Assembly: GCA_902551185.1 (NCBI GenBank)
Contig: CACDCN010000001.1
Location: forward strand, 69,049-127,501
Source: an uncultured SAR86 cluster bacterium
Lineage (GTDB): Bacteria; Pseudomonadota; Gammaproteobacteria; Magnimaribacterales; D2472
Direction of reading: 5' to 3'
Length of the DNA: 58,453 nucleotides
The stretch's first letter is position 1, and every line of letters starts with the position of its first letter. Both the position numbers and the translations under genes were made by a program. This document shows positions 26,948-46,614 of this stretch, in pieces. The notes beneath the pieces are model-generated. The model saw nothing but the letters and a program-made list of their open reading frames with translations. It was not told where the DNA came from and did not search any database.

Positions 26948-28096
26948 ATGTTTCTTAACTTTTTTAAATATTTAAATAAGAAGATTTTATTTGTTATTTT
27001 ATTTATAACAGCTCCTCTTATAAATGCAGACTGGTTTGCATTAAATATGACTAGGGGTATCACAGATATAAGCAATGAGGTATTTGAGTTACACATGCTT
27101 ATTTTCTGGATTTGTGTAGTGATTGGCGTATTAGTATTTGGGGTTATGTTTTACTCAATGTACGCACACACCAGAGAGAAAAATCCTGTACCCGCCACTT
27201 TTGATGATAATCATAAGCTTGAGATAGCATGGACAATAATCCCATTTTTAATTTTAATAGCAATGGCTGTTCCAGCATCTAAAACTCTTATTAAAATGTA
27301 TGATGATACAGCTGGAGATATCAATATCCAGGTAACAGGATATCAATGGAAATGGCAGTACAGATATTTAGAAGATGATGTAAGTTTTTTCTCAAACTTA
27401 GCTACAGATTGGGATGAAATTAATAATCTTGTTCCTAAGGGAGAGAATTATCTACAGGAAGTAGATGAAATGGTTGTAATCCCTACTGGAAAAAAAGTTA
27501 GATTCTTAATAACTGCAAATGATGTTATTCATTCATGGTGGATGCCAGCTTTTGCTATTAAACAAGATGCCATTCCTGGGTTTGTTAATACAGCATGGAC
27601 AAAAGTTGATGTGCCAGGCATATATAGAGGTAAATGCACAGAGCTTTGTGGGAAGAATCATGGCTTTATGCCTATTGTTGTAAAGGTTGTTGAGCAAAAT
27701 GAATATGAGGAATGGGTAGGAATTAAAAAAGAAGAAGCTCAAAAATTAGCTGAACTTACTACTAAAGAATGGACTGCAGAAGAATTGGTCTCAAGAGGGC
27801 AAAGTGTTTATGAAGTAAATTGTGTTGCTTGCCATCAAACAAATGGACAAGGTATTGCAGGCATCTTTCCTGCTTTAGTAGGAAGCGATATAGTCCTGAA
27901 TAATAAAGAAAGAAATATAGAAATCTTAATGGAAGGAGTTCAAGGGGCAGCCATGAATTCATTTAGTTATCTATCTGAGGTTGAGATAGCATCAGTAATA
28001 ACATACACAAGACAATCATGGGGCAATGATGAAAAAGGAGATGGAGAGGTAGTTGTTCCAAAAGATATTGTAGATTATAAAGAACCGAAAATATAA
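26948..28096 (+). CDS. coxB: Cytochrome c oxidase subunit II with fused C-terminal cytochrome c
   Basis: QWKWQY, DVIHSW, CuA motif CTELCGKNHGFM, heme motif CVACH. Confidence 0.96.
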   Translation: MFLNFFKYLNKKILFVILFITAPLINADWFALNMTRGITDISNEVFELHMLIFWICVVIGVLVFGVMFYSMYAHTREKNPVPATFDDNHKLEIAWTIIPFLILIAMAVPASKTLIKMYDDTAGDINIQVTGYQWKWQYRYLEDDVSFFSNLATDWDEINNLVPKGENYLQEVDEMVVIPTGKKVRFLITANDVIHSWWMPAFAIKQDAIPGFVNTAWTKVDVPGIYRGKCTELCGKNHGFMPIVVKVVEQNEYEEWVGIKKEEAQKLAELTTKEWTAEELVSRGQSVYEVNCVACHQTNGQGIAGIFPALVGSDIVLNNKERNIEILMEGVQGAAMNSFSYLSEVEIASVITYTRQSWGNDEKGDGEVVVPKDIVDYKEPKI

Positions 28097-28110
28097 TATA
28101 GGAAATTATT

Positions 28111-29694
28111 ATGAGCGCAGTTATAGAAAACCATCACGACGACCATCATCATGGACCAGCTAAAGGTATAACCAGATGGTTATATACAACCAATCATAAG
28201 GATATAGGAACTTTATACTTATGGTTTAGTTTTGCAATGTTCTTAATTGGTGGAGCCATGGCAATGGTTATAAGGGCTGAATTATTTTCACCAGGAATGC
28301 AAATTGTAGAACCAGAATTCTACAATCAAATGATTACTCTACATGGCCTAATAATGATCTTTGGTGGAGTTATGCCCGCTTTTGTTGGCCTAGCCAACTG
28401 GCTTGTTCCAATGATGATTGGTGCGCCTGATATGGCTCTTCCAAGAATGAATAATTTAAGTTTTTGGATACTCCCTTTTGCCTTCTTTATTTTATTATCA
28501 TCTTTATTTATGGAAGGAGGCGCTCCTAATTTTGGCTGGACTTTTTATGCACCACTTTCAACAACTTACGCACCACCAAGTGTTACGTTTTTTATTTTTT
28601 CAGTTCATATCATGGGGGCTTCATCGATAATGGGATCAATAAACGTTGTTGTAACTATAATGAACATGAGAGCTCCTGGAGTTGGTCTTATGAAGATGCC
28701 GCTCTTTGTTTGGTCATGGCTAATTACTGCTTATTTATTAATTGCTGTTATGCCAGTTTTAGCTGGAGCAGTAACAATGATGTTAATGGATATTCATTTT
28801 GGAACTAGCTTTTTTAACGCAGCTGGCGGAGGAGATCCAGTTCTTTTTCAACATATATTTTGGTTCTTTGGACATCCTGAAGTTTATATAATGATCTTGC
28901 CAGCATTTGGGATAGTTTCTCATATAATTGAAACCTTTTCTCGTAAGCCTTTATTTGGATATGCTTCAATGGTTTGGGCAATGTTATCAATTGCAATATT
29001 ATCTTTTGTAGTATGGGCGCACCATATGTTTACAGTTGGCATGCCATTGGCAGCTGAGATTTTCTTTATGTGGGCAACAATGCTGATAGCAGTTCCAACT
29101 GGAGTAAAAGTTTTTAATTGGGTTGCGACAATGTTTAGAGGCTCTATAACATTTGAAACTCCTATGTTATTTGCATGCGCCTTTGTTGTGCTTTTTACAA
29201 TTGGAGGATTATCTGGCTTGATGCTTGCAATTGTTCCTGCAGATTTTCAATACCATGACACATATTTCGTAGTTGCGCACTTTCATTATGTTTTAGTTCC
29301 GGGGGCTATATTCTCTATAATGGCCGCAGTTTATTTTTGGATACCTAAATGGTCTGGAAATATGTATGACGAAAGATTAGGCAAATTACATTTTTGGCTT
29401 TCTTTTATTGGAGTTAATGTAACATTCTTCCCGCAACACTTTATTGGTCTTGCAGGAATGCCTAGAAGATATCCGGACTATGCCCTGCAATTTGCAGATT
29501 GGAATATGGTCTCTAGTGTTGGAGCATTTTTATTTGGCTTTTCCCAGCTTTTATTTTTATTTATAGTAGTTAAAACTGTAATGGGTGGTAAAAAAGCCAC
29601 TGATCAAGTTTGGGAAGGAGCAAAGGGGCTTGAATGGACTGTTGCTTCCCCTGCGCCTTATCACACTTTCTCTACACCACCAAAAGTTGACTAA
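28111..29694 (+). CDS. coxA: Cytochrome c oxidase subunit I (A1 type)
   Basis: [38 protein letters not shown]. Confidence 0.98.
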
Positions 29695-30251
29695 TGAATA
29701 AGGAAGCAAAGAAAACATTAACAAGATTAGTTGTTGCTGTGCCGCTAATGTTTGCTTTTGGCTTTGCTTTGGTACCGCTTTATAACGTCTTTTGTGAAGT
29801 AACTGGCATCAATGGAAAGATTTTTCAATCTGAACATAATGATAAATTTATTTCTGAGGAAGGCAGGCCTATAGCTCTACAATTTATTTCAACAAATAAT
29901 GAAAATATGCCTTGGGTATTTAAACCCTCTGAGCAAGTGATGGAAATCCAAACTGGTAAATACCATTCAGCAACTTTTTATGTCAAAAATACAACTAACA
30001 AGAAAATGACTGCCCAGGCGGTTCCAAGTGTAGCCCCCTCTAACGCGGCAGAACATTTAAAGAAATTAGAATGCTTTTGTTTTGAGCAACAAGAATTAAT
30101 GCCAGGCGAAGAGGCAATTCTTCCTATTAGACTTCTTGTATCAAATGAGTTACCAAAAAATATAAAGAATATAATTTTGTCTTATACGATTTTTGATATA
30201 ACAGATTATAACGATGAAGCCTTAGCTCATCATCAAATGGATATGGAGTAA
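29694..30251 (+). CDS. ctaG: Cytochrome c oxidase copper chaperone Cox11/CtaG
   Basis: VPLYNVFCEVTG and ECFCF motifs. Confidence 0.93.
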   Translation: MNKEAKKTLTRLVVAVPLMFAFGFALVPLYNVFCEVTGINGKIFQSEHNDKFISEEGRPIALQFISTNNENMPWVFKPSEQVMEIQTGKYHSATFYVKNTTNKKMTAQAVPSVAPSNAAEHLKKLECFCFEQQELMPGEEAILPIRLLVSNELPKNIKNIILSYTIFDITDYNDEALAHHQMDME

Positions 30252-30260
30252 TATAATATT

Positions 30261-31175
30261 ATGAGTGGCGGAAGTTATTACGTACCAGATCAAAGCAGAT
30301 TTCCTATTTTCATGGCTTTTTCTTTATTCCTTCTTGTTATGGGCGCATCAAGCACGATTAATAATCTAGACGATCCTACAAATAATTCTGTGTATATATT
30401 GTATACAGGATTTGGATGTTTATTTTTAACAATGTTTTTTTGGTTCAGACAAGTAATTAAAGAGCATCTTGCAGGATTAGACTCTAATCAATTAAAACAG
30501 TCTTATGTATTTGGCATGGCATGGTTTATTTTCTCTGAGGTAATGTTTTTTGCTGCATTTTTTGGCGCTTTATTTTATGTTAGAACTTTTGCGGTTCCAT
30601 GGTTGGCTGGAGAGGGAGCAAAAGGTGGTGCAATTGAAGCAATTGAGTTATGGCAGGGCTTTGAGTCAACTTGGCCTGTTATGTCTACACCTGACCAGGG
30701 GAATGAGTTTGTCTTAGCAGATAAAAGCATGGCTTGGCCAGGCTGGGACCATGCTCTTGAATGGCTGCCACTTTGGAATACGATTGTTTTACTTAGCTCA
30801 AGTGTAACTGTGCATATTGCGCATTTAGGTTTAAAAAATGGAAATAGAAGAAAATTTAATATTTTTCTCGGAATCACTGTTACTTTAGCTCTTATATTTG
30901 TTGGGCTCCAAGCTGCAGAATATTATGAGGCTTATGCTCATTACGGATTAACATTAAATTCTGGAATATACGGCTCAACATTTTTTATGTTAACTGGCTT
31001 CCATGGATTCCACGTTATGATGGGTGGATTTATGCTAGCAGTTATGTTGGCTAGGTCAGTCTTTGCAGGTCATTTTGAAGACCATGATCATTTTGGTTTT
31101 GAGGCTGCCTCATGGTATTGGCATTTTGTTGATGTTGTTTGGGTAATGTTATTTTTATTTGTTTATATACTTTAA
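30261..31175 (+). CDS. coxC: Cytochrome c oxidase subunit III
   Basis: FIFSEVMFF, TGFHGFHV, WYWHFVDVVW. Confidence 0.96.
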   Translation: MSGGSYYVPDQSRFPIFMAFSLFLLVMGASSTINNLDDPTNNSVYILYTGFGCLFLTMFFWFRQVIKEHLAGLDSNQLKQSYVFGMAWFIFSEVMFFAAFFGALFYVRTFAVPWLAGEGAKGGAIEAIELWQGFESTWPVMSTPDQGNEFVLADKSMAWPGWDHALEWLPLWNTIVLLSSSVTVHIAHLGLKNGNRRKFNIFLGITVTLALIFVGLQAAEYYEAYAHYGLTLNSGIYGSTFFMLTGFHGFHVMMGGFMLAVMLARSVFAGHFEDHDHFGFEAASWYWHFVDVVWVMLFLFVYIL

Positions 31176-31394
31176 TTAAGAATCATCCCAAGGCACATTG
31201 TTTCCTAGTTCACCAGTATAGAGACCAATAGTTACTAATATGACCAATAGAGCTGCAAAGAAGACCCTAAGGCCAAGTAAATATACAGTTCTTTTTCTTC
31301 CTGTATCTCCTTTATCGATAAACAGAAAAAAAAGACCTCCAGCAAGAGAAAGAAGTAAAAGCGGTAAGACGATATAAATTAGAGTTGTAATCAT
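31176..31394 (-). CDS. Twin-TM small protein (DUF2909-like) of cox clusters
   Basis: SLAGGLFFLFID...LGLRV pattern; antisense position between coxC and SURF1 as in Pseudomonadales. Confidence 0.72.
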   Translation of the reverse strand: MITTLIYIVLPLLLLSLAGGLFFLFIDKGDTGRKRTVYLLGLRVFFAALLVILVTIGLYTGELGNNVPWDDS

Positions 31395-31428
31395 AATAAA
31401 ATTTTAAAGCATATATACTTTAATAGAT

Positions 31429-32130
31429 ATGGTAAAAAATAAATTTAATCCCGGAATAAGAATAACAATATTTTTTGTTTTTTTTGCTATTTTATTCTTC
31501 TCTCTTGGCCTTTGGCAGATCGAAAGAGGCCAGGCAAAAACTATTATATTGGCTGAGTTTGAAGATAATTTAAGTAAGACTCCTGTATACCTCAATCAGG
31601 AATCAAAAAAGTGGGACAGGGTTTATTTAAAAGGTAAATGGGATAATTCAAAACAGATATTAGTAGACAACGTTATTAATAGAGGTGTTGTTGGATACAA
31701 GGTTTTAACGCCGTTAAGAATTATAGAAACAAATCAATTGATTCTTGTTGATAGAGGATGGGTTAAGCAAAATAAATATAGAGAAATCCTTCCTAACATT
31801 GAATTAGTAGAGGCCGATGAGATCGTTAGCGGGATTCTTGAATACCCAGAACTAGGGCTTGTTTTATCAGAAGATTTAGTTTCAAAAGAGTGGCCTAAGA
31901 TTTCACAAACGAAGAACCTTGAAGTTATCTCAAAGGAATATGATGAATTTATTTACCCCATGATTTTATTAGCTGACCCCATTCTTAAAAACAGCTTAGA
32001 ATATATTAAAATTACTCCTACAAATATGACGCCAACAAAACATTATGGATACTCTGCACAATGGTTTTTAATGTTTTTAGTCTTATGTTTAATGTACCTT
32101 TGGTATGGATTTAAAAAAAATGAGAAATAA
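31429..32130 (+). CDS. SURF1-family cytochrome oxidase biogenesis protein
   Basis: LGLWQIER, GYKVLTPL, VDRGW, HYGYSAQWF. Confidence 0.92.
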   Translation: MVKNKFNPGIRITIFFVFFAILFFSLGLWQIERGQAKTIILAEFEDNLSKTPVYLNQESKKWDRVYLKGKWDNSKQILVDNVINRGVVGYKVLTPLRIIETNQLILVDRGWVKQNKYREILPNIELVEADEIVSGILEYPELGLVLSEDLVSKEWPKISQTKNLEVISKEYDEFIYPMILLADPILKNSLEYIKITPTNMTPTKHYGYSAQWFLMFLVLCLMYLWYGFKKNEK

Positions 32131-32671
32131 GTTTTTTTTAGCAGCAATATTATTAACTCCAATATTGGTAGTATCACTCTCATCTCTTTACTTTGTTATG
32201 GGCAACTCTCCAGAGGGCACCAAGAACAATGGAGTCTTCTTTAAAAGCTATTTTGAATTTAATCAATTTAAAAACGAAAAAGGCAACCCAGATCTTATAA
32301 ATTTTGATGATGGTAAATGGGTTCTGTCTGTATATGTTACAAATATAGAGGCAAGCAAAGAATCTATATATTTAATGAGACAATTAAATGTTGCACTTAA
32401 TAGAGACATAAATAAATTAAAACGAGTGATATTTTATTCTAATAGTCTTCTTGAAAGAGATTTGCTGGATATTAAATCTCAATATCCAAGAGTTGAACTT
32501 GTTGAAGATAAGAATGGTGTTTTATTAAATGTTTTACAGAAAAACTCTAAGTTAAATTTTAATATTGATAATCCTATTTTTATAATCGACCCATATGGAA
32601 GAGCGGTAATGTATTTTAACCCGGGCACCGATCCAAAATTAATTTTAAAAGATTTAAAGGTACTAATTTAA
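32120..32671 (+). CDS. Conserved membrane-anchored cox-cluster protein (thioredoxin-like, no CxxC)
   Basis: N-terminal TM; TKNNG and IIDPYGRAVM...LKDLK patterns seen in the gene between SURF1 and cox15. Confidence 0.65.
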   Translation: MRNKFFLAAILLTPILVVSLSSLYFVMGNSPEGTKNNGVFFKSYFEFNQFKNEKGNPDLINFDDGKWVLSVYVTNIEASKESIYLMRQLNVALNRDINKLKRVIFYSNSLLERDLLDIKSQYPRVELVEDKNGVLLNVLQKNSKLNFNIDNPIFIIDPYGRAVMYFNPGTDPKLILKDLKVLI

Positions 32672-33645
32672 TGAATCAAATTACAAAATTATCTTTTATT
32701 GGAATATGTATGGCTTTTGTTGTAATTGCATTAGGTGCATGGACTAGATTAGTTGATGCGGGCCTTGGTTGCCCAGACTGGCCAGGCTGCTATGGGTTTA
32801 TAGTCTTTCCAACCAATGAGGCTGAAATTGCTCTAGCAGAAAGCAGGTATCCAATGTTTCCATATGATATCAATAAAGCAATTCCAGAGGTTGTTCATAG
32901 ATATTTTGCTGCCGCTTTAGGCTTGGTTGCAATATTTTTAGTTTACCTTTCTTTTAAAAATACAAAAGACAGGTCAATTAGGGGCTGGTCAATATTTCTT
33001 TTATTTTTTATATGCTGCCAAGGCTTATTTGGTTATTTGACAGTAAGCTTAAAATTATTACCAATAATAGTTACAACACATCTATTTGGAGGATTTGCAA
33101 CATTAACTTTATTTTATTTTCTTTATTTAAAATCTCGTAATTTTGAAATCTTCAATCAAATTAATATTTCAAACTTAAAGGTAATCGCTGGTATAGCTTT
33201 TTTAGTATTAATATTGCAGATTTTTCTTGGAGTATGGACTAGCACCAACTATGCATCATTAGCATGTGCCGACTTTCCTACCTGTCAGGGGAGCTATTTA
33301 CCAGAAATGGACTTTAAGAGCGGATTTAATTTAAATCAAGAAGTTGGCCCAAATTATCTATATGGTTTACTTGATAATCCCGCTAGAGTAGCGATTCATT
33401 ATTCCCATAGAGTAACAGCAATATTAGTAACAATATTGTTTTTAATATTGATGTCTAGGTTATGGTTTTCCAATGCAGCTCCATTAGCATCAACTCTCGG
33501 CATTCTATTGTTAACGCAAATAACATTAGGAATAATTAATGTTGTGTATGTTTTGCCTTTATATGTGGCTATTGCGCATAACTTAGTGGCAGCATGCTTA
33601 TTGCTTGCATTATTTACAATAAACTATCTTGCTTGGAAAAAATGA
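32671..33645 (+). CDS. ctaA: Heme A synthase (Cox15/CtaA)
   Basis: GLGCPDWPGC, EVVHRY, second Cys pair CADFPTC, HYSHR, AHN. Confidence 0.93.
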   Translation: MNQITKLSFIGICMAFVVIALGAWTRLVDAGLGCPDWPGCYGFIVFPTNEAEIALAESRYPMFPYDINKAIPEVVHRYFAAALGLVAIFLVYLSFKNTKDRSIRGWSIFLLFFICCQGLFGYLTVSLKLLPIIVTTHLFGGFATLTLFYFLYLKSRNFEIFNQINISNLKVIAGIAFLVLILQIFLGVWTSTNYASLACADFPTCQGSYLPEMDFKSGFNLNQEVGPNYLYGLLDNPARVAIHYSHRVTAILVTILFLILMSRLWFSNAAPLASTLGILLLTQITLGIINVVYVLPLYVAIAHNLVAACLLLALFTINYLAWKK

Positions 33646-34508
33646 CACTGCTGAAGAGCTATTATCAATTATGTAAACCCAATGTTGTTTATATGATGTT
33701 GATCTGTGCATTTGTAGGAATGCTCTTAGCAGAAGAAACAGTAAGATCTTTTGGTTATTTGTTTGTTGCTTTAAGTGGTATAGCATTATGCTCAGCCTCT
33801 GCCGCTGCAATTAATCAGGTGATCGATAGAAATACTGATGCCTCGATGACAAGAACTGATCAAAGACCACTTCCTAAAGGAGAGTTATCTGCAACCCATG
33901 CCTCAGTATTTGCTTTTGTTATTGGAGTGATAGGAGCCTTGATTTTATATTTTTATGTAAACACTTTGACAATGATACTTACTATCGCATCTTTAATAGG
34001 CTATGCATTTATTTATACAATATATTTAAAAAGAGCCACTCCTCAAAATATTGTCATAGGCGGATTAGCTGGTGCAGCGCCACCTCTATTGGGATGGGCA
34101 TCTATTACCAATACTATTGATCCATATGCTTTATTGTTGGTCTTAATAATTTTTGTTTGGACACCACCTCATTTTTGGGCATTAGCAATTTACCGTAAGG
34201 ATGAATATGCCAAAGAATCTATTCCCATGCTTCCAGTCACTCATGGAATTGTATTTACAAAATTACAAATAGTCCTTTATACAATTATTCTATTCATAGT
34301 TAGTCTCTTACCATATGTGGTGCTTATGTCAGGACCGATATATCTTTATTCTGCATTAATACTTAGCAGTATATTTTTATACTCTTCGGTTAAACTTTAT
34401 TTCAGTAGCGATGATGAAGATGCTATGAAAACTTTTCAATTTTCTATTTATTACATCTTTTTAATCTTTTTAGCATTATTGGTGGACCACTTTATAATAT
34501 TGAGTTAA
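33642..34508 (+). CDS. cyoE: Protoheme IX farnesyltransferase (heme O synthase)
   Basis: DASMTRTDQRPLP, LKRATPQNIVIGG, WTPPHFWALA; ATG at 33642. Confidence 0.95.
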   Translation: MTLLKSYYQLCKPNVVYMMLICAFVGMLLAEETVRSFGYLFVALSGIALCSASAAAINQVIDRNTDASMTRTDQRPLPKGELSATHASVFAFVIGVIGALILYFYVNTLTMILTIASLIGYAFIYTIYLKRATPQNIVIGGLAGAAPPLLGWASITNTIDPYALLLVLIIFVWTPPHFWALAIYRKDEYAKESIPMLPVTHGIVFTKLQIVLYTIILFIVSLLPYVVLMSGPIYLYSALILSSIFLYSSVKLYFSSDDEDAMKTFQFSIYYIFLIFLALLVDHFIILS

Positions 34509-35146
34509 TGACTATAAAAACAAATATATTGTTGATTGTGATTTTCATGATCACTGTTGTAGGACTGTTCATAAATAAATTAACAACCCCACGAATCTTA
34601 AGTGCAAACGAACTTTTAGCGAACGGGCTTTATTTATTTGAAAACCCTAAACAAATATCTGACTTTAGTTTTTATTCAGCAAATAAGACCGAATTTACAA
34701 AATCTGATCTTATTGGGAAATGGACTTTGATGTACTTTGGATTCACCAGATGCCCAGACGAATGCCCAACAACTATGTATCAGATGTCTAAATTAATAAA
34801 AGTATTAAGAGAAAAAGAATTTCCTTTAGAAGACAAACAATGGGTGTTGGTTTCGATCGATCCTGAAAGAGATACCCCAGAGGTTGTTGATAAATATGCA
34901 AAGGGTTTTGATAAGGATTTTATGGGAGTTGAAAATATAAGACCAATGCTTTTAAGTCTAGCTACTCAACTATCTGTAAATAATGTAATGCCAAATGATG
35001 ACTTAACAGATCATTCTCACTTAGATAATCATGTAAACAATATTATTCTTTTAAATCCAGCAGGGGAGTTCGCAGGAATCTTTAGACCGCCATTTGATGT
35101 CTCTAGACTTTCATTGACTTATCAGTCTGTGGTAAGTCAGCAATAG
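34508..35146 (+). CDS. SCO1/SenC copper chaperone
   Basis: FGFTRCPDECP, SIDPERD, conserved His near the C-terminus. Confidence 0.92.
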   Translation: MTIKTNILLIVIFMITVVGLFINKLTTPRILSANELLANGLYLFENPKQISDFSFYSANKTEFTKSDLIGKWTLMYFGFTRCPDECPTTMYQMSKLIKVLREKEFPLEDKQWVLVSIDPERDTPEVVDKYAKGFDKDFMGVENIRPMLLSLATQLSVNNVMPNDDLTDHSHLDNHVNNIILLNPAGEFAGIFRPPFDVSRLSLTYQSVVSQQ

Positions 35147-39417: not shown

Positions 39418-39924
39418 TTAGCTATTTTTTAATTTAAATATAGTGCAAATTAGAAACACTAAAAAGAATATAAGACCCCATTCTGCAAAATTAAATACAA
39501 ACCTCCACCCATCTTCTGCACAACTAGGTCCGCCTGCAAGAGTTTTCTTTATAGCCTCTATAATTCCAAAGTATTCAACTTGAGTATTAAAAGGCATTCC
39601 GCAGCCAGAAAGTTGAGAAATATCCTCAATCGACATGTTTTGGATATAAATTTGTCTAGTTGTTACCAAGAGACCGATAAGAGATGAAATCATTATTAGC
39701 AATTGGCCAATAATAGGTTTCTTCAAAAGAATTCCAATAATTGCAGATAAAGCAATTAAACCAAAAACATACCTTGTTAATATACACATTGGGCATGCTT
39801 GCAGATAAAGAAACTTATCCATGACAACTGCTATCAAAATAATCATTATTGCTGAAATAGCTACAGCTAACTCAAAGTACATTTGATATATATGCTTAAT
39901 AAATTCTGAAATATTTTTATACAT
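39418..39924 (-). CDS. dsbB: Disulfide bond formation protein DsbB
   Basis: ACPMCILTR, second periplasmic Cys pair (GCG...SCA), 4 TMs. Confidence 0.88.
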   Translation of the reverse strand: MYKNISEFIKHIYQMYFELAVAISAIMIILIAVVMDKFLYLQACPMCILTRYVFGLIALSAIIGILLKKPIIGQLLIMISSLIGLLVTTRQIYIQNMSIEDISQLSGCGMPFNTQVEYFGIIEAIKKTLAGGPSCAEDGWRFVFNFAEWGLIFFLVFLICTIFKLKNS

Positions 39925-39987: not shown

Positions 39988-42660
39988 ATGAAAGATAGAA
40001 TTTTTGTAATAGATGGATCCTCATATCTTTATAGAGCCTTCCATGCAATGCCTCCTTTAAGTACCTCCTCAGGTAAGCCAACCGGCGCTGTTAAAGGTGT
40101 TACAAACATGCTTATTAATTTAAAAAAAGAAAGTGAAGGTTCGCCAATAATTGTTGTATTTGATGCGAAAGGCAAAACTTTTAGAAATGATATTTATAAA
40201 GAATACAAAGCAAACCGACCGCCAATGCCTGACGAACTTAGAGAGCAACTTGAACCAGTCAAATCAATATGTAGAGCAATAGGATTTCCATTAATAGAAA
40301 TTAGTGGAGTAGAGGCTGATGATGTTATTGCAACTATTGCACGCATGGCAAAAGATGCTAAATATAAATGTGTTATCTCTTCTTTAGATAAAGATCTTAT
40401 GCAGTTAGTTGAAGATCCTGATACAACTATGATGAATACAATGAAGCATATTATTTTTAATGAAGAAAAAGTATTTGAAAAATTTGGAGTGAAGCCTAAT
40501 CAAGTCAGAGACATGCTTGCTCTTACTGGAGATTCTTCAGATAACATCCCAGGTGTTCCTAAGGTTGGCCAAAAAACTGCTGCAAAGTGGTTGAATGAAT
40601 ATGGTGATCTAGAAGGGATCAAAAAAAATGCAGAATCAATAACAGGAGTTGTTGGTGAAAATCTAAGAAATTGTTTAAATGATCTCGATAGAAATGTTGA
40701 ATTAGTATCATTAAAAGAAGATGTAGATCTAAATATTGATTTCACAGATTTATTAAAACTTTCACCTAATGATGAAGAGTTAGAGAAAATTTTTACAGAA
40801 TTAGAATTTAAAGCACTTGATAAAAGCAAACAAGAGGAAGCACCCAAGAAGGATTCTAAATACAAAACAATATTAAGCGAAAAGGATTTAAAAAAGTGGA
40901 TTAATAAAATTAATAAATCAAAAGTATTTGCTCTTGATACCGAAACTGATTCAGTAAATACAGTTTCAGCAAATTTAATTGGGATTTCTATTTCAGTTTC
41001 TGAGAATGAGGGGTGTTATATCCCAATAGGACATTCTTATGATGGATGTCCGGAACAATTAAAAATGGACCATGTAGTAAAAACATTTGGTCCAGCAATA
41101 GAACAAAATCAAAAAAAGATAGTAGGACAGAATCTCAAATTTGATATCCCAATACTTTCTAGACATGGAATTAATATCACAGAATTTTGTGCTGACACAA
41201 TGTTAATGTCTTATGTCTTAAACAGCACGGCCACTCGCCATGGAATGGATAGGCTCGCGGATTATTATTTAAATTACACTACAACAAAATATTCAGATGT
41301 TACCGGAACAGCATCAAAACAAATTAGTTTTTCTGAAGTAAAACTAGAAGTTGCAACTGACTATGCATCTGAAGATGCTGATATAACTCTAAGATTGTAT
41401 AACGTACTAGCGCCGATGCTAAAAGACAAACCAACTCAAGAAAAGTTACTTCATGATATTGAATACCCTTTAGTTAATGTTCTTGCGAGGGTGGAACAAA
41501 ACGGAGCAAAAATAGATAAGAACAAATTATCAAAGCATTCTAAAGAGTTAAGTAAGAAAATTAATGAGCTTTCATCTCAAGCTTTTAAAATCGCTGGTGA
41601 AGAATTTAATTTAGATTCACCAAAACAATTGCTTGAAATACTTTATGAGAAACAAGGGTTACCAGTTCTAAAGAAAACACCAAAAGGACAACCTTCAACT
41701 AATGAAGATACTTTACAACGACTTTCTGAAGAATATGAGTTGCCAAAAATTATCTTGCAATACAGGACATTGGCAAAACTAAAATCGACTTATACTGACA
41801 GCCTAATAAATATAGAGAATCCTAAAACTGAGAGAATTCATACCTCCTACCAGCAAGCAGTGACCTCTACTGGAAGATTGTCATCTACGGAACCTAATTT
41901 ACAAAATATTCCAATTAAAACAGCTGAAGGAAGAAGAATTAGAGAGGCTTTTGTCCCAGAAAAAGGCAATGTTTTAATTTCAGCCGATTATTCTCAAATT
42001 GAATTAAGAATAATGGCTCACTTATCGAAAGATAAAAATTTAACCCATGCATTTAATAATGATATAGATGTTCATTCATCAACAGCAGCTGAAGTTTTTG
42101 GTATTTCAATAGACGATGTAACTCAAGACCAAAGAAGGAGTGCCAAAGCAATTAACTTTGGGCTGATGTATGGTATGTCTGCTTTTGGCCTAACAAGACA
42201 ACTAGGTATCTCAAGGGGAGAAGCTCAAGAATATTTGGACACCTATTTTGCTAGATATACAGGCGTTAGGGATTATATGGATAACATAAAAGCCCAAGCA
42301 AAAGAAGATAAATATGTAGAAACAATTATGGGAAGAAGGCTTTATTTAAAAGAAATTAATGCAGCCAATGCAAGATTAAGACAAGGGGCAGAAAGAGCTG
42401 CTATTAATGCACCACTTCAAGGATCAGCAGCAGATATTATTAAAAAAGCTATGTTAGATATTGATAATCTTATTATAAATAAAATGTCTGATGTGAAAAT
42501 GATTATGCAAGTTCATGATGAATTAGTATTCGAGTGTCCAAAAAATAATGCTGATACTGTCATGGAGAAAATGAAAGACACTATGGAGCAAACAGTAAAG
42601 CTTAATATTCCTTTAATAGCTGAAGCCGCTATTGGATTAAATTGGAATGAAGCTCACTAA
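39988..42660 (+). CDS. polA: DNA polymerase I
   Basis: 5'-3' exo DGSSYLYRAFH, 3'-5' exo DTET, polymerase motifs ADYSQIELR, AKAINFG, QVHDE. Confidence 0.98.
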   Translation: MKDRIFVIDGSSYLYRAFHAMPPLSTSSGKPTGAVKGVTNMLINLKKESEGSPIIVVFDAKGKTFRNDIYKEYKANRPPMPDELREQLEPVKSICRAIGFPLIEISGVEADDVIATIARMAKDAKYKCVISSLDKDLMQLVEDPDTTMMNTMKHIIFNEEKVFEKFGVKPNQVRDMLALTGDSSDNIPGVPKVGQKTAAKWLNEYGDLEGIKKNAESITGVVGENLRNCLNDLDRNVELVSLKEDVDLNIDFTDLLKLSPNDEELEKIFTELEFKALDKSKQEEAPKKDSKYKTILSEKDLKKWINKINKSKVFALDTETDSVNTVSANLIGISISVSENEGCYIPIGHSYDGCPEQLKMDHVVKTFGPAIEQNQKKIVGQNLKFDIPILSRHGINITEFCADTMLMSYVLNSTATRHGMDRLADYYLNYTTTKYSDVTGTASKQISFSEVKLEVATDYASEDADITLRLYNVLAPMLKDKPTQEKLLHDIEYPLVNVLARVEQNGAKIDKNKLSKHSKELSKKINELSSQAFKIAGEEFNLDSPKQLLEILYEKQGLPVLKKTPKGQPSTNEDTLQRLSEEYELPKIILQYRTLAKLKSTYTDSLINIENPKTERIHTSYQQAVTSTGRLSSTEPNLQNIPIKTAEGRRIREAFVPEKGNVLISADYSQIELRIMAHLSKDKNLTHAFNNDIDVHSSTAAEVFGISIDDVTQDQRRSAKAINFGLMYGMSAFGLTRQLGISRGEAQEYLDTYFARYTGVRDYMDNIKAQAKEDKYVETIMGRRLYLKEINAANARLRQGAERAAINAPLQGSAADIIKKAMLDIDNLIINKMSDVKMIMQVHDELVFECPKNNADTVMEKMKDTMEQTVKLNIPLIAEAAIGLNWNEAH

Positions 42661-43160
42661 CTTGATCTTTCTAGTGGAATATATTTTCTTTCTTCAGGTA
42701 AAAGAATTTTAATACCATGCTCTTCTCTCAAATCTGAAATTTTCATACAGAGATACTCTTCTGGCATTTTAAAAGGCCATTTCTTATTCATTTTAAAAGT
42801 CCTAAAAATTACCTTTCTTTTTATTCCTCCAAGTTTCCAGAAAACCTTCAGAAAGCCTCTGATGCCAAACTCTTTGTGTAGGTCTTTATATAGTTGCTGT
42901 ATTTCAGGAAGTTTCTGATACTTAAGTATATATTTCCATTGAAATTTACTCCCCCAAAGAACCCAAGTATCAAGAATAGACTCTTGCTCTATAGAGGTAT
43001 CAAGCCCAAAAATAACATGTGTACAATCATGATCTCTTAAAAGAGTTCCAGACTCCTTATTGTCTGCCATGATTTCAGTTGTTTCAGGAAAATTTTTGTA
43101 GTAACAATCTAAACCCTCTTGAAGTGTTAAATCACAATCTTGTTTTTGATACTCGTACAT
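42657..43160 (-). CDS. Hypothetical protein with Coq4-like metal motif HDxxH-x11-E
   Basis: HDCTHVIFGLDTSIEQE. Confidence 0.55.
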   Translation of the reverse strand: MYEYQKQDCDLTLQEGLDCYYKNFPETTEIMADNKESGTLLRDHDCTHVIFGLDTSIEQESILDTWVLWGSKFQWKYILKYQKLPEIQQLYKDLHKEFGIRGFLKVFWKLGGIKRKVIFRTFKMNKKWPFKMPEEYLCMKISDLREEHGIKILLPEERKYIPLERSS

Positions 43161-43741
43161 TACTTAACAAAGTTTAGTATTTTTTTAGAGAGGCTGTCAA
43201 AACCATCTTTATCTTTTGAAGACACTGCAATAGGAGTTGATTCAGGAATTTTTCCTTTAACGAAAGATATAGCTTTAGCGATATTATTGTTTGACAGTTT
43301 GTCGCTTTTTGTAAGTGCTGGGATGAAAGGGACATTAAAATTTCTACATAAGTGGATCATTTCCCAATCACTTTCTTTAAGAGGATGACGGATATCCATA
43401 AATATAACTACAGCAGTTAAAGCTCTTCGTTTCTGAAAATATTCACCTAGTAGAGGGCTCCAGTCTTTCTTTTTTGCCTTACTGGATTTTGCAAAACCAT
43501 ATCCAGGAAGGTCTAACAGCATAAGATCTTCATTTACTTTAAAAAAGTTAATTTCTGTTGTTCTGCCGGGAGTTTTACTTATTCTTGCTAGTTTTGGATT
43601 ATCAGTTAGTACATTAAGTGCGCTAGATTTTCCAGCATTAGACCTGCCTGCAAGCAGAATTTCGCTTCCAGCATCATCTGGTAGATTTTTATAGTTTGTT
43701 ACACCAAAAACAAACTCAGTTTTTTTAAAAAGGTTTTTCAT
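43160..43741 (-). CDS. engB: Ribosome biogenesis GTPase EngB/YihA
   Basis: GRSNAGKSS, SKTPGRT, DLPGYG, TKSDK. Confidence 0.96.
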   Translation of the reverse strand: MKNLFKKTEFVFGVTNYKNLPDDAGSEILLAGRSNAGKSSALNVLTDNPKLARISKTPGRTTEINFFKVNEDLMLLDLPGYGFAKSSKAKKKDWSPLLGEYFQKRRALTAVVIFMDIRHPLKESDWEMIHLCRNFNVPFIPALTKSDKLSNNNIAKAISFVKGKIPESTPIAVSSKDKDGFDSLSKKILNFVK

Positions 43742-43809
43742 TTAATCGTTTATATCATATCAACCTATGTTTATAATACACACCAACAAGACACACATTT
43801 TAGTTTTCA

Positions 43810-44475
43810 ATGAAGTATTCTTTATTATTTTTTGCACTACTAGGCCTTTCAGTTGGTTTGGGTGCAGCTGATGATAAATCCAAAGGAATACAAATGCCAG
43901 AAACTTTCATATCAGGCGATCCTGATAAAGGGTCTGCGTTAGTTGAATCTTGTGTTGCTTGTCATGGTGTTGATGGAAATAGTATTAGTACAGATTGGCC
44001 CAAGCTTGCTGGACAAAATCAAAAATATTTACTTGAAGAACTAAAACATTTTAGAGATGGAGAGAGAAATAATGTTTTAATGATGGCGGTAATCCCATAC
44101 TTGCAAACATTAAGTGATCAAGATTTATTAGATATAGCTGCTTTTTATTCCAAATATAATACTAATGTGGGGCAGGCCAAAAATGACGAGGAATTACTTG
44201 CATTAGGGACTCAATTATATAGATTTGGTGATATTAAAAAACAGATACCAGCTTGTACATCTTGTCATGCAGTTTATGGTCAAGGCAATAGACTTGCTGG
44301 ATATCCCGTTATAGCTGGACAGCAAATCGGCTACTTAACTTCTACTTTAAAAGCTTATAGATCAAAAGAAAGAAATGCTGGAGAATCTTCTTTAGTAATG
44401 CAAGCAATCGCAGAAAATTTAAGTGATTATGAAATCGATGCTTTAGCAAATTATATGCACGGATTATACGAATGA
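43810..44475 (+). CDS. Diheme cytochrome c4
   Basis: Signal peptide, CVACH and CTSCH, PKLAGQ; engB-c4-dsbA synteny. Confidence 0.92.
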   Translation: MKYSLLFFALLGLSVGLGAADDKSKGIQMPETFISGDPDKGSALVESCVACHGVDGNSISTDWPKLAGQNQKYLLEELKHFRDGERNNVLMMAVIPYLQTLSDQDLLDIAAFYSKYNTNVGQAKNDEELLALGTQLYRFGDIKKQIPACTSCHAVYGQGNRLAGYPVIAGQQIGYLTSTLKAYRSKERNAGESSLVMQAIAENLSDYEIDALANYMHGLYE

Positions 44476-45095
44476 GGAATTTTATGAAAACTAGTTACAA
44501 ATTTTTACTTTTATTTATTTTTACAGTTTCAATGCAAGCAGAATATAGGCTTGGAGTAGATTATGTTTTAATAGATAATCCATTGCCTGTTAAAAGAGAT
44601 GGCGTCGTAGAGGTTACAGAATCTTTTTGGTATGGCTGTGGAGCATGTTATTCATTTGAATCTTCAATTAATGCCTGGGCTGCAAAACAGGATGATGACG
44701 TAAAACTAACTAAGATGCCTATAACATGGGGGGCGATTCATCAACTCCATGCATCTCTTTACTATACAATTGAGGCATTAAAATTAGATCCTTCTACTCA
44801 TTCCGCAGTTTTTGTAACGATTCATAAAGAGGGAAATTTTTTACAAAATACCAAAGCAATACAAAACTTTTTAGAAAAATTTGGAGTAGCACCAGAATTA
44901 TCTGAACAGTATTTAAATTCATTTGCGGTAAAACAAAGAGTTAACAGGGGAATAAAATATGCACGACAGTTAAAGGTCGCAGCTGTTCCTCAAATGATAG
45001 TTGATGGAAAATATATGATTCAAAACAAAGGCTCTTTTTCAGACATGCTTAAAGTTGTTGATCATGTTGTTGAGCTTCAAAAACCAAATAGTTAG
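44472..45095 (+). CDS. dsbA: Thiol:disulfide interchange protein DsbA
   Basis: Signal peptide, FWYGCGACY active site, cis-Pro loop AVP, VDGKY. Confidence 0.88.
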   Translation: MRNFMKTSYKFLLLFIFTVSMQAEYRLGVDYVLIDNPLPVKRDGVVEVTESFWYGCGACYSFESSINAWAAKQDDDVKLTKMPITWGAIHQLHASLYYTIEALKLDPSTHSAVFVTIHKEGNFLQNTKAIQNFLEKFGVAPELSEQYLNSFAVKQRVNRGIKYARQLKVAAVPQMIVDGKYMIQNKGSFSDMLKVVDHVVELQKPNS

Positions 45096-45102
45096 ATTAA
45101 TT

Positions 45103-45690
45103 ATGAAGAACAAAATCCTTTTAATAATTCTTCCGCTATGTTTCTTATTGCTTTTTAATGGCAAGAAATACGATGAAGCTGTAAAAGATAGATTAAATCT
45201 GCCTGTTAAATTATGTCTTGAAGGTGAAGATTGTGGAACTAGCTCCAAAGCTAGCGAACCAACTATGGTTGCTCAAGTTGCTGTCGAAAAGGTAGAACTT
45301 TCTGAAGGTTCAGAGCATACCATAAAGATGCTTAATTCTGGGGAAGGTGGACAGATGATATTTGAACCTGCTGTAATAAAAGTCTCTAAAGGAGATACTA
45401 TTCATTTTAAATTAGTAGACCCAGCACATAATTCGGCATCTATTGATGGAATGATACCTGCAGGAGCTAATTCATGGGCCGGAGAACTTAATCGAGATAT
45501 TAGCGTAACCTTAGATACGGAAGGTGTTTATGTTTATCAGTGTGATCCTCATGTCATGATGGCTATGATTGGAGTTATTCAAGTAGGCGAAGCTGTAAAT
45601 ATGAATCAAATTAAAGAAGCTTCTAAAAATTTAAAACCTTCATTTATAATGAATGCAGAAAGAATAGATACATATTTAAGTCAGCTTTAA
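45103..45690 (+). CDS. Pseudoazurin-type blue copper protein with a cytochrome c5-like N-terminal leader
   Basis: KMLN...MIFEP...GDTIHF...HN...MIPAGA...GVYVYQCDPHVMMAM (type-1 Cu ligands H, C, H, M); N-terminal hydrophobic segment then DRLNLPVKLCLEGEDC. Confidence 0.85.
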   Translation: MKNKILLIILPLCFLLLFNGKKYDEAVKDRLNLPVKLCLEGEDCGTSSKASEPTMVAQVAVEKVELSEGSEHTIKMLNSGEGGQMIFEPAVIKVSKGDTIHFKLVDPAHNSASIDGMIPAGANSWAGELNRDISVTLDTEGVYVYQCDPHVMMAMIGVIQVGEAVNMNQIKEASKNLKPSFIMNAERIDTYLSQL

Positions 45691-45917
45691 TCTTTTTCTA
45701 ATTCTGAGAGTCTATCTTCTAGATCATTGATTATTCTCTCAAGATTTTTATATTTTGATTTTTTAATATAGCCACTTTGTTCAATAAGGTTTTCAATTTC
45801 AGGCGATATTTTTTCTTCAATATTTGAAATGATATCTTTGGGAATTAATTTACTGAAACTTTTTAATTCTTTTTCAATGATGCTTTTAATAGCTTCTGAT
45901 AAATCTTTATCACTCAT
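45687..45917 (-). CDS. Small coiled-coil protein, possibly UbiK/BMFP-like
   Basis: 76 aa; C-terminal LEDRLSELE heptads resemble UbiK LEQRISELE. Confidence 0.45.
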   Translation of the reverse strand: MSDKDLSEAIKSIIEKELKSFSKLIPKDIISNIEEKISPEIENLIEQSGYIKKSKYKNLERIINDLEDRLSELEKD

Positions 45918-46614
45918 ATTTGTTCTCTATTATTTTCGGTAATACATCCCAAGATTTAAATTCATCAGGTTTAGGAAAATCTTGAGACCATTTTTCATTA
46001 TTATTATTAAACCATAATGTGTCTATACCAAGATTATAAGCGCCTAAAATATCATTTATCTGATGATCTCCAATATGAAGTATTTGATCAAAACTTATAT
46101 CATCAACGAACTCTATAGCTTTATCAAAATGAGCACGATTTGGTTTGCTATCTCTTGCCTCTAAAGAACTAATTGCAAATTTAAAGTATTTACCAATTTT
46201 AAATTTATACACGTCAGCATTACCATTAGTTAATATTCCTAACACATATTTTTTTGATAAAGAATCTAGAGCCTCTTCAACCCCATCAAATAATTCGATT
46301 TCATGCCTTTTATTAATAAATATATTAAATGCCTCGTCTACAATTTCATCTCTCAGATTAGATGGAGTTATATGGCTGATTTTTTTTCTAAAAATCTCTT
46401 TTCTTAATTTGCTTATATCCCATTCGATGCTTGCGTCTTCTTTTATAAGCTCTTCTCTTAGAGAAAGGAAGTCATTGAAATCTCCCCATTGAACTTCACC
46501 AACTTTATCTTCTATCCATTTTCTAGTATCAATCTCAGCTTTTAAAATAGTAGGCCGGTTATCCCAAAGAGTATCATCTAGATCGAAGGTTATCATTTTG
46601 ATCTTTTTACTCAT
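45910..46614 (-). CDS. HAD-superfamily hydrolase (YigB-like)
   Basis: FDLDDTLWD, TNGN, KP, HIGD...D motifs; xerC operon context. Confidence 0.88.
   Translation of the reverse strand: MSKKIKMITFDLDDTLWDNRPTILKAEIDTRKWIEDKVGEVQWGDFNDFLSLREELIKEDASIEWDISKLRKEIFRKKISHITPSNLRDEIVDEAFNIFINKRHEIELFDGVEEALDSLSKKYVLGILTNGNADVYKFKIGKYFKFAISSLEARDSKPNRAHFDKAIEFVDDISFDQILHIGDHQINDILGAYNLGIDTLWFNNNNEKWSQDFPKPDEFKSWDVLPKIIENKYE

Follow-up and report, generated by a model that had tools for sequence, protein, structure and literature searches.

We analysed a window of DNA, the whole stretch of 58,453 nucleotides taken from an uncultured SAR86 cluster bacterium, in which a gene next to those for cytochrome c4 and DsbA encodes a tail-bearing (long-form) pseudoazurin (Table 1). 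A sequence-only reading of this DNA had proposed that the docking and anchor module of cytochrome c5 was kept here while its haem head was exchanged for copper, and this core proposal agrees with the homology of the tail to that of c5, with the c5 found at the same locus in sister genera, and with the lack of a separate c5 in the genomes searched, as detailed below. The c4 and dsbA genes lie directly upstream of the pseudoazurin gene, as that reading had stated; the c4 stop overlaps the dsbA start by 4 nt, and 7 nt separate the end of dsbA from the start of the pseudoazurin gene. Upstream of c4 are polA and engB, and downstream, on the opposite strand, are a small open reading frame (ORF), a haloacid dehalogenase (HAD) hydrolase and xerC.

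Table 1. Coordinates of the pseudoazurin gene, its parts and associated genes in the window.
Feature	Position	Strand	Basis or remark
Tail-bearing (long-form) pseudoazurin gene	45103..45690	+	195 aa + stop
Residues 1-20: K-rich start and hydrophobic helix	45103..45162	+	sequence; AF2 helix 5-31
Residues 21-46: c5-type docking tail KKYDEAVKDRLNLPVKLCLEGEDCGT, Cys38 and Cys44	45163..45240	+	conservation, profile match
Residues 47-65: variable Ser/Ala/Thr/Gln-rich flexible linker	45241..45297	+	alignment, pLDDT
Residues 66-195: pseudoazurin head	45298..45687	+	TIGR02375, ligands, model
Cu ligands H109; C147; H150; M155	45427-45429; 45541-45543; 45550-45552; 45565-45567	+	
Dihaem cytochrome c4, two CxxCH	43810..44475	+	PF00034, 2 stretches
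DsbA thiol:disulfide oxidoreductase	44472..45095	+	PF01323 E 1.1e-10, NF008198
CoxB (subunit II) with fused C-terminal cytochrome c domain	26948..28096	+	PF00116, PF02790, PF13442/PF00034 at residues 281-353
CoxA, CtaG/Cox11, CoxC, SURF1, CtaA, CtaB, SCO1 (aa3-type cluster)	28111..35146	+	
DUF2909	within 28111..35146	-	
DsbB	39418..39924	-	PF02600 E 9.4e-21

All the strings that the sequence-only reading had quoted (YDEAVKDRLNLPVKLCLEGEDCG, PAHN and CDPHVMMAM) are present in the 195-residue translation, which, again as claimed, contains no CxxCH and has cysteines only at positions 13, 38, 44 and 147. The pseudoazurin model TIGR02375 covers residues 76-194 with 132.6 bits (curated cut-off 109.85) and PF00127 (Copper-bind) matches the product with E = 5.1e-16 (59.3 bits against a cut-off of 21.2); no Pfam or NCBIfam model matches residues 1-75. 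Twenty-one long forms, drawn from four families of the window's order, were aligned: H109, C147, H150 and M155, the type-1 copper set His...Cys-x2-His-x4-Met, are invariant in all sequences, and we predict a blue-copper redox centre from them. R30, C38 and C44 of the leader are likewise invariant (21/21), and E40 and G41 reach at least 90% conservation; from G45 to about K63 the length varies and there is not one conserved column. An AlphaFold2 (AF2) monomer of only moderate quality (mean predicted local distance difference test score, pLDDT, 64.2; predicted template modelling score 0.52) has a helix at residues 5-31, no structure at 32-65 (pLDDT below 50 at 45-60), and a head formed by a beta sandwich (strands within 71-161) and C-terminal helices at 167-180 and 185-194. 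The N-terminus is probably an uncleaved signal anchor, because a small-x-small site is missing before NGKKY; relatives in other families have cleavable signal peptides or lipoboxes instead. Judged by its head, the long form is a pseudoazurin that shares only the tail and linker module with c5 and is not itself a c5. Its family comprises 1730 proteins at E ≤ 0.001 among 1826 candidates in a 90% cluster library, with a length of 195 residues in 116 of the 120 members listed, and source databases annotate it simply as 'pseudoazurin'.

The same genome encodes a second, ordinary pseudoazurin (G000:C16:2215-2655) of 146 residues, consisting of a signal peptide and the domain only, which is about 55% identical to the window protein over residues 69-194; its lack of the leader accords with the claim that ordinary pseudoazurins are without this segment. 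Two other genomes, G019 of the same genus (L029:2366-3450) and G030 (L028:2989-4025), carry a short pseudoazurin directly upstream of an alternative oxidase gene on the same strand (PF01786, E = 8e-74 and 6e-68), an odd combination, since it puts a cupredoxin beside a di-iron quinol oxidase; no alternative oxidase gene adjoins the short pseudoazurin of the window's genome (L027). Elsewhere, a second pseudoazurin-like stretch (G531:C5:47414-47935, minus strand; 47% identity to residues 22-195) contains five stops (two TAG, three TAA); it could represent a copy in decay, or else a short form whose frame was read on into the DNA upstream.

The leader was captured in a profile of 27 columns (A1) built from 15 pseudoazurin leaders only, with no cytochrome included, so that cytochrome sequences could not bias it. 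Against 177,635 distinct sequences of the Protein Data Bank (PDB), its sole significant match was 8smr_L, 'Cytochrome C5' (E = 3e-5), with the alignment falling on DDAIAKRLEPVGKVCVQGKEC (residues 22-42); the next PDB match reached only E = 0.34. Among 401 genomes from across the class, 12 were matched at E ≤ 0.01, three of them from the window's own order, and eight of the nine matches outside the order are the N-termini of c5-type monohaem frames in which an Ala-rich stretch precedes a CxxCH domain (the ninth, a 28-residue frame, was taken as noise). The Cys pair is present in five of these eight tails and missing in three. One class-level c5 (L033) matches 8smr_L over its full length (E = 2.4e-56) and aligns with 1CC5, the classical 83-residue Azotobacter-type c5 chain, only from residue 50, past the tail and linker; the full-length c5 alignment has the same tail, then an Ala/Gly linker. 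No NCBIfam model names c5, and the c5 proteins gave no matches above cut-off in that collection. A leader-only profile search had been set earlier as a test and returned c5 N-termini as expected: the likeness to c5 leaders goes beyond chance, and the leader consensus that the sequence-only reading had given is borne out. On the strength of these profile matches, the window leader is homologous to the N-terminal tail of c5.

What this tail does in a known system is described in the report on the Pseudomonas aeruginosa bc1-c4-c5-cbb3 supercomplex (8SMR), where a 16-residue N-terminal tail of c5 was built in density, touching c4 and c1, with the linker and haem head not resolved (PMC10556555). 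Classification placed c5 head density above c4 or beside CcoP, and in the authors' proposal the linker allows the head to diffuse from one site to the other (PMC10556555).

We searched the same 151 genomes of the window's order with A1, with a profile of the c5 haem domain (A2, 11 sequences) and with the whole window protein. A tail was matched by A1 in 112 genomes, exactly one in each, and none of the 151 held two. The tail stands on a full-length pseudoazurin in 68 genomes, 65 of them recognised by A1 in frames of at least 190 residues and three (genus g329) having a divergent tail detected only with the whole-protein query. In 48 of these 68, A2 found no c5-type haem domain anywhere; in the remaining 20, a tail-less c5 haem gene with its own signal peptide lies directly downstream. 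Examples of such tandem loci are L045:3495-4427 (G449), L021:2998-3975, L023:2980-3908 and L024:2983-3943. Tail and c5 haem domain occur in one frame of 136-165 residues, that is, as canonical c5, in 37 genomes, and ten genomes of genera g327 and g328 have the tail in a frame of 134-159 residues lacking the c5 domain. In the three loci of g327 and g328 that were read, the head is of a third kind, a class I cytochrome with one haem whose nearest match is Vibrio c554 (2ZZS, E = 3.3e-13); these c554-like heads lie at c4-dsbA (L043:3427-3831 in G496, L042:3459-3881 in G438 and L044:3353-3817 in G445). In 30 further genomes, which all belong to family f4, c5 is present and A1 matches nothing; the single f4 locus read (G027) has a divergent tail at c4-dsbA-c5. 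Six genomes have none of the tail, c5 or long pseudoazurin types. Within the window's genus (g1), no c5 haem domain, and hence no separate intact c5 of the kind that would speak against replacement, was found by A2 in any of eight genomes (among them two that are 97% and 96% complete) or in the window's own, 77% complete, genome. In a separate draw, 22 of 24 relatives from this genus had the long pseudoazurin, the two without it being 70% and 80% complete.

Twenty representative loci were read across the order. In the window's family (f1) the gene order is constant, polA, engB, c4, dsbA, X, small ORF, HAD, xerC, DUF484, dapF, and X has one shared anchor and tail (…FNGKKYD-x-x-V-x-x-R…C-x-EG-x-x-CG) whatever its head. 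That head is a pseudoazurin in g1, g334 and three species of g332, c5 in g331, g333 and five species of g332, and c554-like in g327 and g328; in g330, X is a pseudoazurin followed by a tail-less c5. Over its first 50 residues, the window protein shares 44-65% identity with the N-termini of these haem proteins (E from 1e-17 to 8e-11 per genome), and sister genera do carry a c5 haem domain behind a near-identical anchor and tail at the same c4-dsbA locus, a comparison that the sequence-only reading had suggested. In family f2 the tail differs in style (…ASEA-x-KAIEKRIAPVGSVC…) and is preceded by a cleavable signal peptide, again with either head on it within one genus (g336, g337, g7). More than one head type is present in at least 7 of 21 sampled genera (g6, g7, g328, g330, g332, g336 and g337). 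On these alignments, tails follow taxonomy and heads are exchanged.

A wider scan, with one genome per species and 80 loci returned, found the tail-linker-pseudoazurin build and its shared junction (…LSEGSEH…) also in Porticoccaceae, the OM182 clade, the K189A clade, Woeseiaceae and Cellvibrionales records. The form in Porticoccaceae, Porticoccus, SAR92 and HTCC2207 has a lipobox, then …ERIAPVGSV…, and no cysteines, and Woeseiaceae long forms have a transmembrane anchor. As far as these relatives indicate, the architecture is not private to the window genome and belongs to an old, widespread family in marine Gammaproteobacteria. At E ≤ 0.001, a second profile (A5, 34 columns, from tails of both protein kinds) picked out 172 proteins from 1.84 billion cluster representatives; the library holds one protein per 50% cluster, and the counts therefore say nothing on abundance. 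Among the best 150 of the 172, Pfam assigns cytochrome c to 56, Copper-bind to four, only some other family to eight and nothing to 82. Judged by motif, 64 of the 150 continue after the tail into CxxCH and 12 show the pseudoazurin junction or ligands; the remaining 74, mostly contig-end or chimeric fragments, show none of these. The eight with another family were considered as new heads and rejected, since they look like chimeric or contig-end fragments, and the best 150 of the 172 contain no further head type. Three proteins, P0174 (298 aa), P0188 (301 aa) and P0225 (276 aa), have two cytochrome c domains behind the tail, that is, dihaem heads.

Docking of the tail was modelled with ESMFold2 from c4 residues 20-221 with two haems and pseudoazurin residues 18-75, using alignments of 21 sequences each. 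The complex reached an interface score (ipSAE, interaction prediction score from aligned errors) of 0.75 against 0.01 for the best of three controls, a pass that it may owe to likeness with the solved 8SMR; in calibration, 58 of 80 solved complexes reached the mark, and so did 2 of 110 mismatched pairs. The model runs share at least 77% of contacts, with a partner pLDDT of at least 45 (45-47). On the tail side the predicted interface comprises residues 35-42 and 44-46 (VKLCLEGE and CGT), that is, the Cys hairpin, and on the c4 side residues 120-125, 130, 138, 155-156, 215 and 218-220, which are mostly invariant or nearly so in c4, whichever of the three heads the genome carries. The window c4 itself matches the P. 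aeruginosa c4 of 6Q2U/8SMR with E = 2e-39. The model supports binding of the tail to c4 but does not demonstrate it.

Taking these observations together, we consider it likely that the window protein is a membrane-anchored pseudoazurin on a c5 tail and linker that serves as the tethered last shuttle of the aerobic chain, its copper head replacing the haem head of c5. By analogy with the bc1-c4-c5 assembly of P. aeruginosa, the Cys38-Cys44 tail hairpin would clamp onto c4, and probably also onto c1 of bc1; the membrane anchor of f1 would act as a second tether, and the Cys pair would probably form a DsbA-made disulfide that stiffens the hairpin. On the linker of about 20 residues, the copper head would swing so as to take up electrons at haem 2 of c4 and hand them to the terminal oxidase, here presumably the aa3-type oxidase, probably through the c-domain of CoxB. 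As the sequence-only reading had reported, an aa3-type cluster with CtaG/Cox11 and SCO1 is present in the window (26948-35146), and cytochrome c1 of bc1 is encoded on another contig of the same genome (G000:C2:29568-30233). The aa3-type oxidase is proposed as acceptor because cbb3 was not found: its FixO marker (PF02433) was matched in none of five searched f1 genomes, two of them 96-97% complete. The sequences themselves show which domains are present, that the tail is homologous to that of c5, and that heads are exchanged at the orthologous locus. We infer that the tail docks to c4 (the proposed partner and electron donor), which way the electrons flow, that CoxB is the likely acceptor, and why copper was selected.

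Several points weigh against this proposal. CcoP of cbb3, the known c5 acceptor, was not found in the five genomes searched, which makes the acceptor named here a guess, and the window's own genome is incomplete, as given above. The complex score may not be independent evidence, the custom alignments and the riding haem ligand depart from the calibration of the complexes, the partner's fold in the complex is uncertain at its low pLDDT, and the AF2 monomer is mediocre. In f2 and f3 the gene does not adjoin c4-dsbA, and in many lineages, Porticoccaceae for example, the tails have no Cys pair; the disulfide is therefore not essential. For every member of the family, the mechanism as a whole draws on sequence and models.

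The window also holds replication origin genes and has a G+C content of 33%; genomes of its order measure 0.9-1.8 Mb. A promoter and terminator scan of 43500-46100 gave 11 promoter-like sites against 13.2 expected and one terminator-like site against 1.1 expected, counts so near expectation that they provide no evidence on the transcription unit. Contigs of at least 95% identity from four marine metatranscriptome runs (three studies) cover parts of c4, dsbA and the pseudoazurin gene; being assembled contigs from RNA libraries, they attest presence only, and none bridges the dsbA/pseudoazurin junction with 31 letters on each side, which leaves co-transcription without support. On the minus strand, a 76-residue ORF (45687-45917) overlaps the pseudoazurin stop by 4 nt, with ORFs of 80-83 residues at the same spot in other f1 loci (L043, L044, L047, L049, L061), and a 167-residue ORF (42657-43160) lies between polA and engB, where f1 loci keep an ORF of 165-174 residues that always begins M-x-x-Y/L-Q-x-Q-D/N-C. 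A plus-strand ORF of 188 residues (32105-32671) lies between SURF1 and CtaA. Pfam matches none of these three window ORFs at E ≤ 0.01. A 360-residue frame that lies some 19.5 kb ahead of the window contains a weak Cytochrom_C match (G000:C1:49399-49539, E = 0.24).

As to origin, the haem-bearing tail prevails across the class, and the copper-bearing tail was found only in records labelled marine or uncultured; the likely direction is from haem to copper, with reversals possible among close relatives. The 20 tandem loci look like the footprint of a pseudoazurin domain and a new signal peptide inserted between the linker and haem head of an ancestral c5, and later loss of the c5 gene would then give the state seen in the window; alternatively, they may represent a two-head system. 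A tree of 22 c5 heads, used for row placement only since wrong tail labels on L047, L061 and L059 void its group statistics, groups the f1 heads together (Shimodaira-Hasegawa-like approximate likelihood ratio test support 90), and the grouping of the f1 tandem-locus c5 head with the tail-bearing f1 c5 heads fits descent in place. Of the 82 long forms in a tree that holds 100 pseudoazurin heads, 73 lie to one side, a clustering for which none of 500 shuffles scored as low, and supported branches force at least two changes of the long/short label. This tree has only 125 columns, one locus mislabelled short (L095) and one long branch (L028), and it is too poorly resolved to count origins: a single origin of the long form is neither shown nor ruled out. 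The patchwork within genera may have arisen through recombination between species or through reversals.

Why copper should have been taken up is a separate question. It is possible, though we hold the view tentatively, that the swap is an iron-sparing adaptation in which scarcity of iron favours copper heads, much as it does plastocyanin over cytochrome c6. The carriers fit this in that all those found are labelled marine or uncultured Gammaproteobacteria (including SAR92/Porticoccaceae, OM182, K189A and Woeseiaceae), in that species of one genus differ in head in at least seven genera, as niche-linked alleles would, and in that 20 genomes have both heads side by side. The economy, however, is a single haem: the two haems of c4, c1, two b haems, the 2Fe-2S centre, the c-domain of CoxB and haems a and a3 all stay, and the c-type maturation machinery is still required. 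From a count of known cofactors, we take the chain from bc1 to oxygen to hold about eleven iron atoms here. Nor does Flavodoxin_1 (PF00258) lend support as an iron-stress co-marker; its weak matches follow taxonomy rather than head type (33 of 40 genomes in f1, none of 40 in f2; in g332, seven of eight, with either head), and we set it aside as uninformative. A broader version of the idea, which we regard as speculative and rather unlikely, is that the c5 tail is a general bc1-c4 docking handle whose heads (c5, c554-like, pseudoazurin) are repeatedly exchanged, with copper and haem alleles, in several very abundant marine gammaproteobacterial groups, segregating between sister species or standing side by side according to iron and copper supply. 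If true, this would give heterotrophs a counterpart of the plastocyanin/c6 switch and provide a trace-metal marker readable from metagenomes, and it would mean that a tethered cupredoxin can form an integral part of a respiratory supercomplex that passes electrons to an aa3-type oxidase.

It is also conceivable, and to our minds improbable, that the architecture and the docking to c4 are as described but the copper head serves a partner other than the aa3 oxidase, either as donor to a periplasmic reductase or peroxidase or as the route by which electrons of a periplasmic dehydrogenase enter c4. Denitrification enzymes, not oxidases, are the partners of characterised pseudoazurins, our literature search turned up only such contexts, and the cbb3 acceptor known for c5 was not found in the five f1 genomes searched. 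Yet no copper nitrite reductase (NirK) was found in any of five genomes of the window's genus, these genomes measure just 0.9-1.3 Mb, and sister genera carry c5 at the identical position and on the same tail, where it must serve aa3 in the same cbb3-less background. That the conserved N-terminal segment does no more than tether the protein or help it fold (as a spacer near the membrane or a hairpin that depends on DsbA), without binding c4 or c1 specifically, would accommodate the many tails without cysteines and an anchor type that varies by lineage (transmembrane, cleaved signal peptide, lipoprotein), but is very hard to credit given the invariant R30, C38 and C44 and near-invariant E40 and G41 beside a freely varying linker, the c4- and c1-bound homologous c5 tail in 8SMR (PMC10556555), the separation of the complex score from its controls, and the absence of any genome with two tails.

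Our preferred reading, a copper head tethered by a c5 tail, suggests that this docking tail is modular and used far more widely than in P. aeruginosa. It was not until 2023 that a structure showed c5 tethered in the bc1-c4-c5 supercomplex, and that was in a pathogen. A literature search, thin on subscription journals, turned up no paper that describes a c5 tail on a pseudoazurin or places a copper head in a bc1-c4 complex. On the tail of abundant ocean bacteria with small genomes a copper protein appears to take the place of haem, sister species differ in head, and the window protein is a candidate for a cupredoxin built in as the shuttle of a bacterial aerobic bc1-to-aa3 chain. The natural series of head swaps on a constant tail should be useful for finding what a tethered shuttle needs, and the alleles of the locus can be counted in ocean metagenomes against iron and copper, making iron-sparing respiration in marine heterotrophs directly testable. 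The label 'pseudoazurin' also calls for correction in annotation, as it implies a denitrification that these genomes do not have.

The closest known system is P. aeruginosa c5 (8SMR/8SNH chain L), with which the window protein shares a homologous tail, a flexible linker of the Ala/Gly type and a small redox head, in a genome that likewise has genes for c4 and bc1. It differs in that its head is a predicted type-1 copper cupredoxin without CxxCH, in its apparent uncleaved anchor, and in that no cbb3 was found, from which it follows that the acceptor must differ from that of P. aeruginosa c5. Classical pseudoazurins are soluble, diffusible donors to denitrification enzymes; the window protein has the same domain, the same four copper ligands and the same C-terminal helices, and is set apart by about 65 extra N-terminal residues (anchor, c5 tail and linker), by its place in a putative c4-dsbA operon and by a genus in which no NirK was found (five genomes searched). 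Small redox heads on an anchor and a flexible low-complexity linker are also known from membrane-anchored cytochrome cy of Rhodobacter, the lipid-modified azurin Laz of Neisseria and the halocyanins, and we know of none among these that uses c5-type tail docking on c4 and c1. Plastocyanin and cytochrome c6 of cyanobacteria and algae are two separate soluble proteins, switched by regulation inside one cell. As there, a cupredoxin and a small c-type cytochrome would here fill one shuttle role between a bc-type complex and a terminal acceptor; unlike there, the heads are swapped on one docking tail at one locus, are mostly fixed between species, and would work in heterotrophic respiration.

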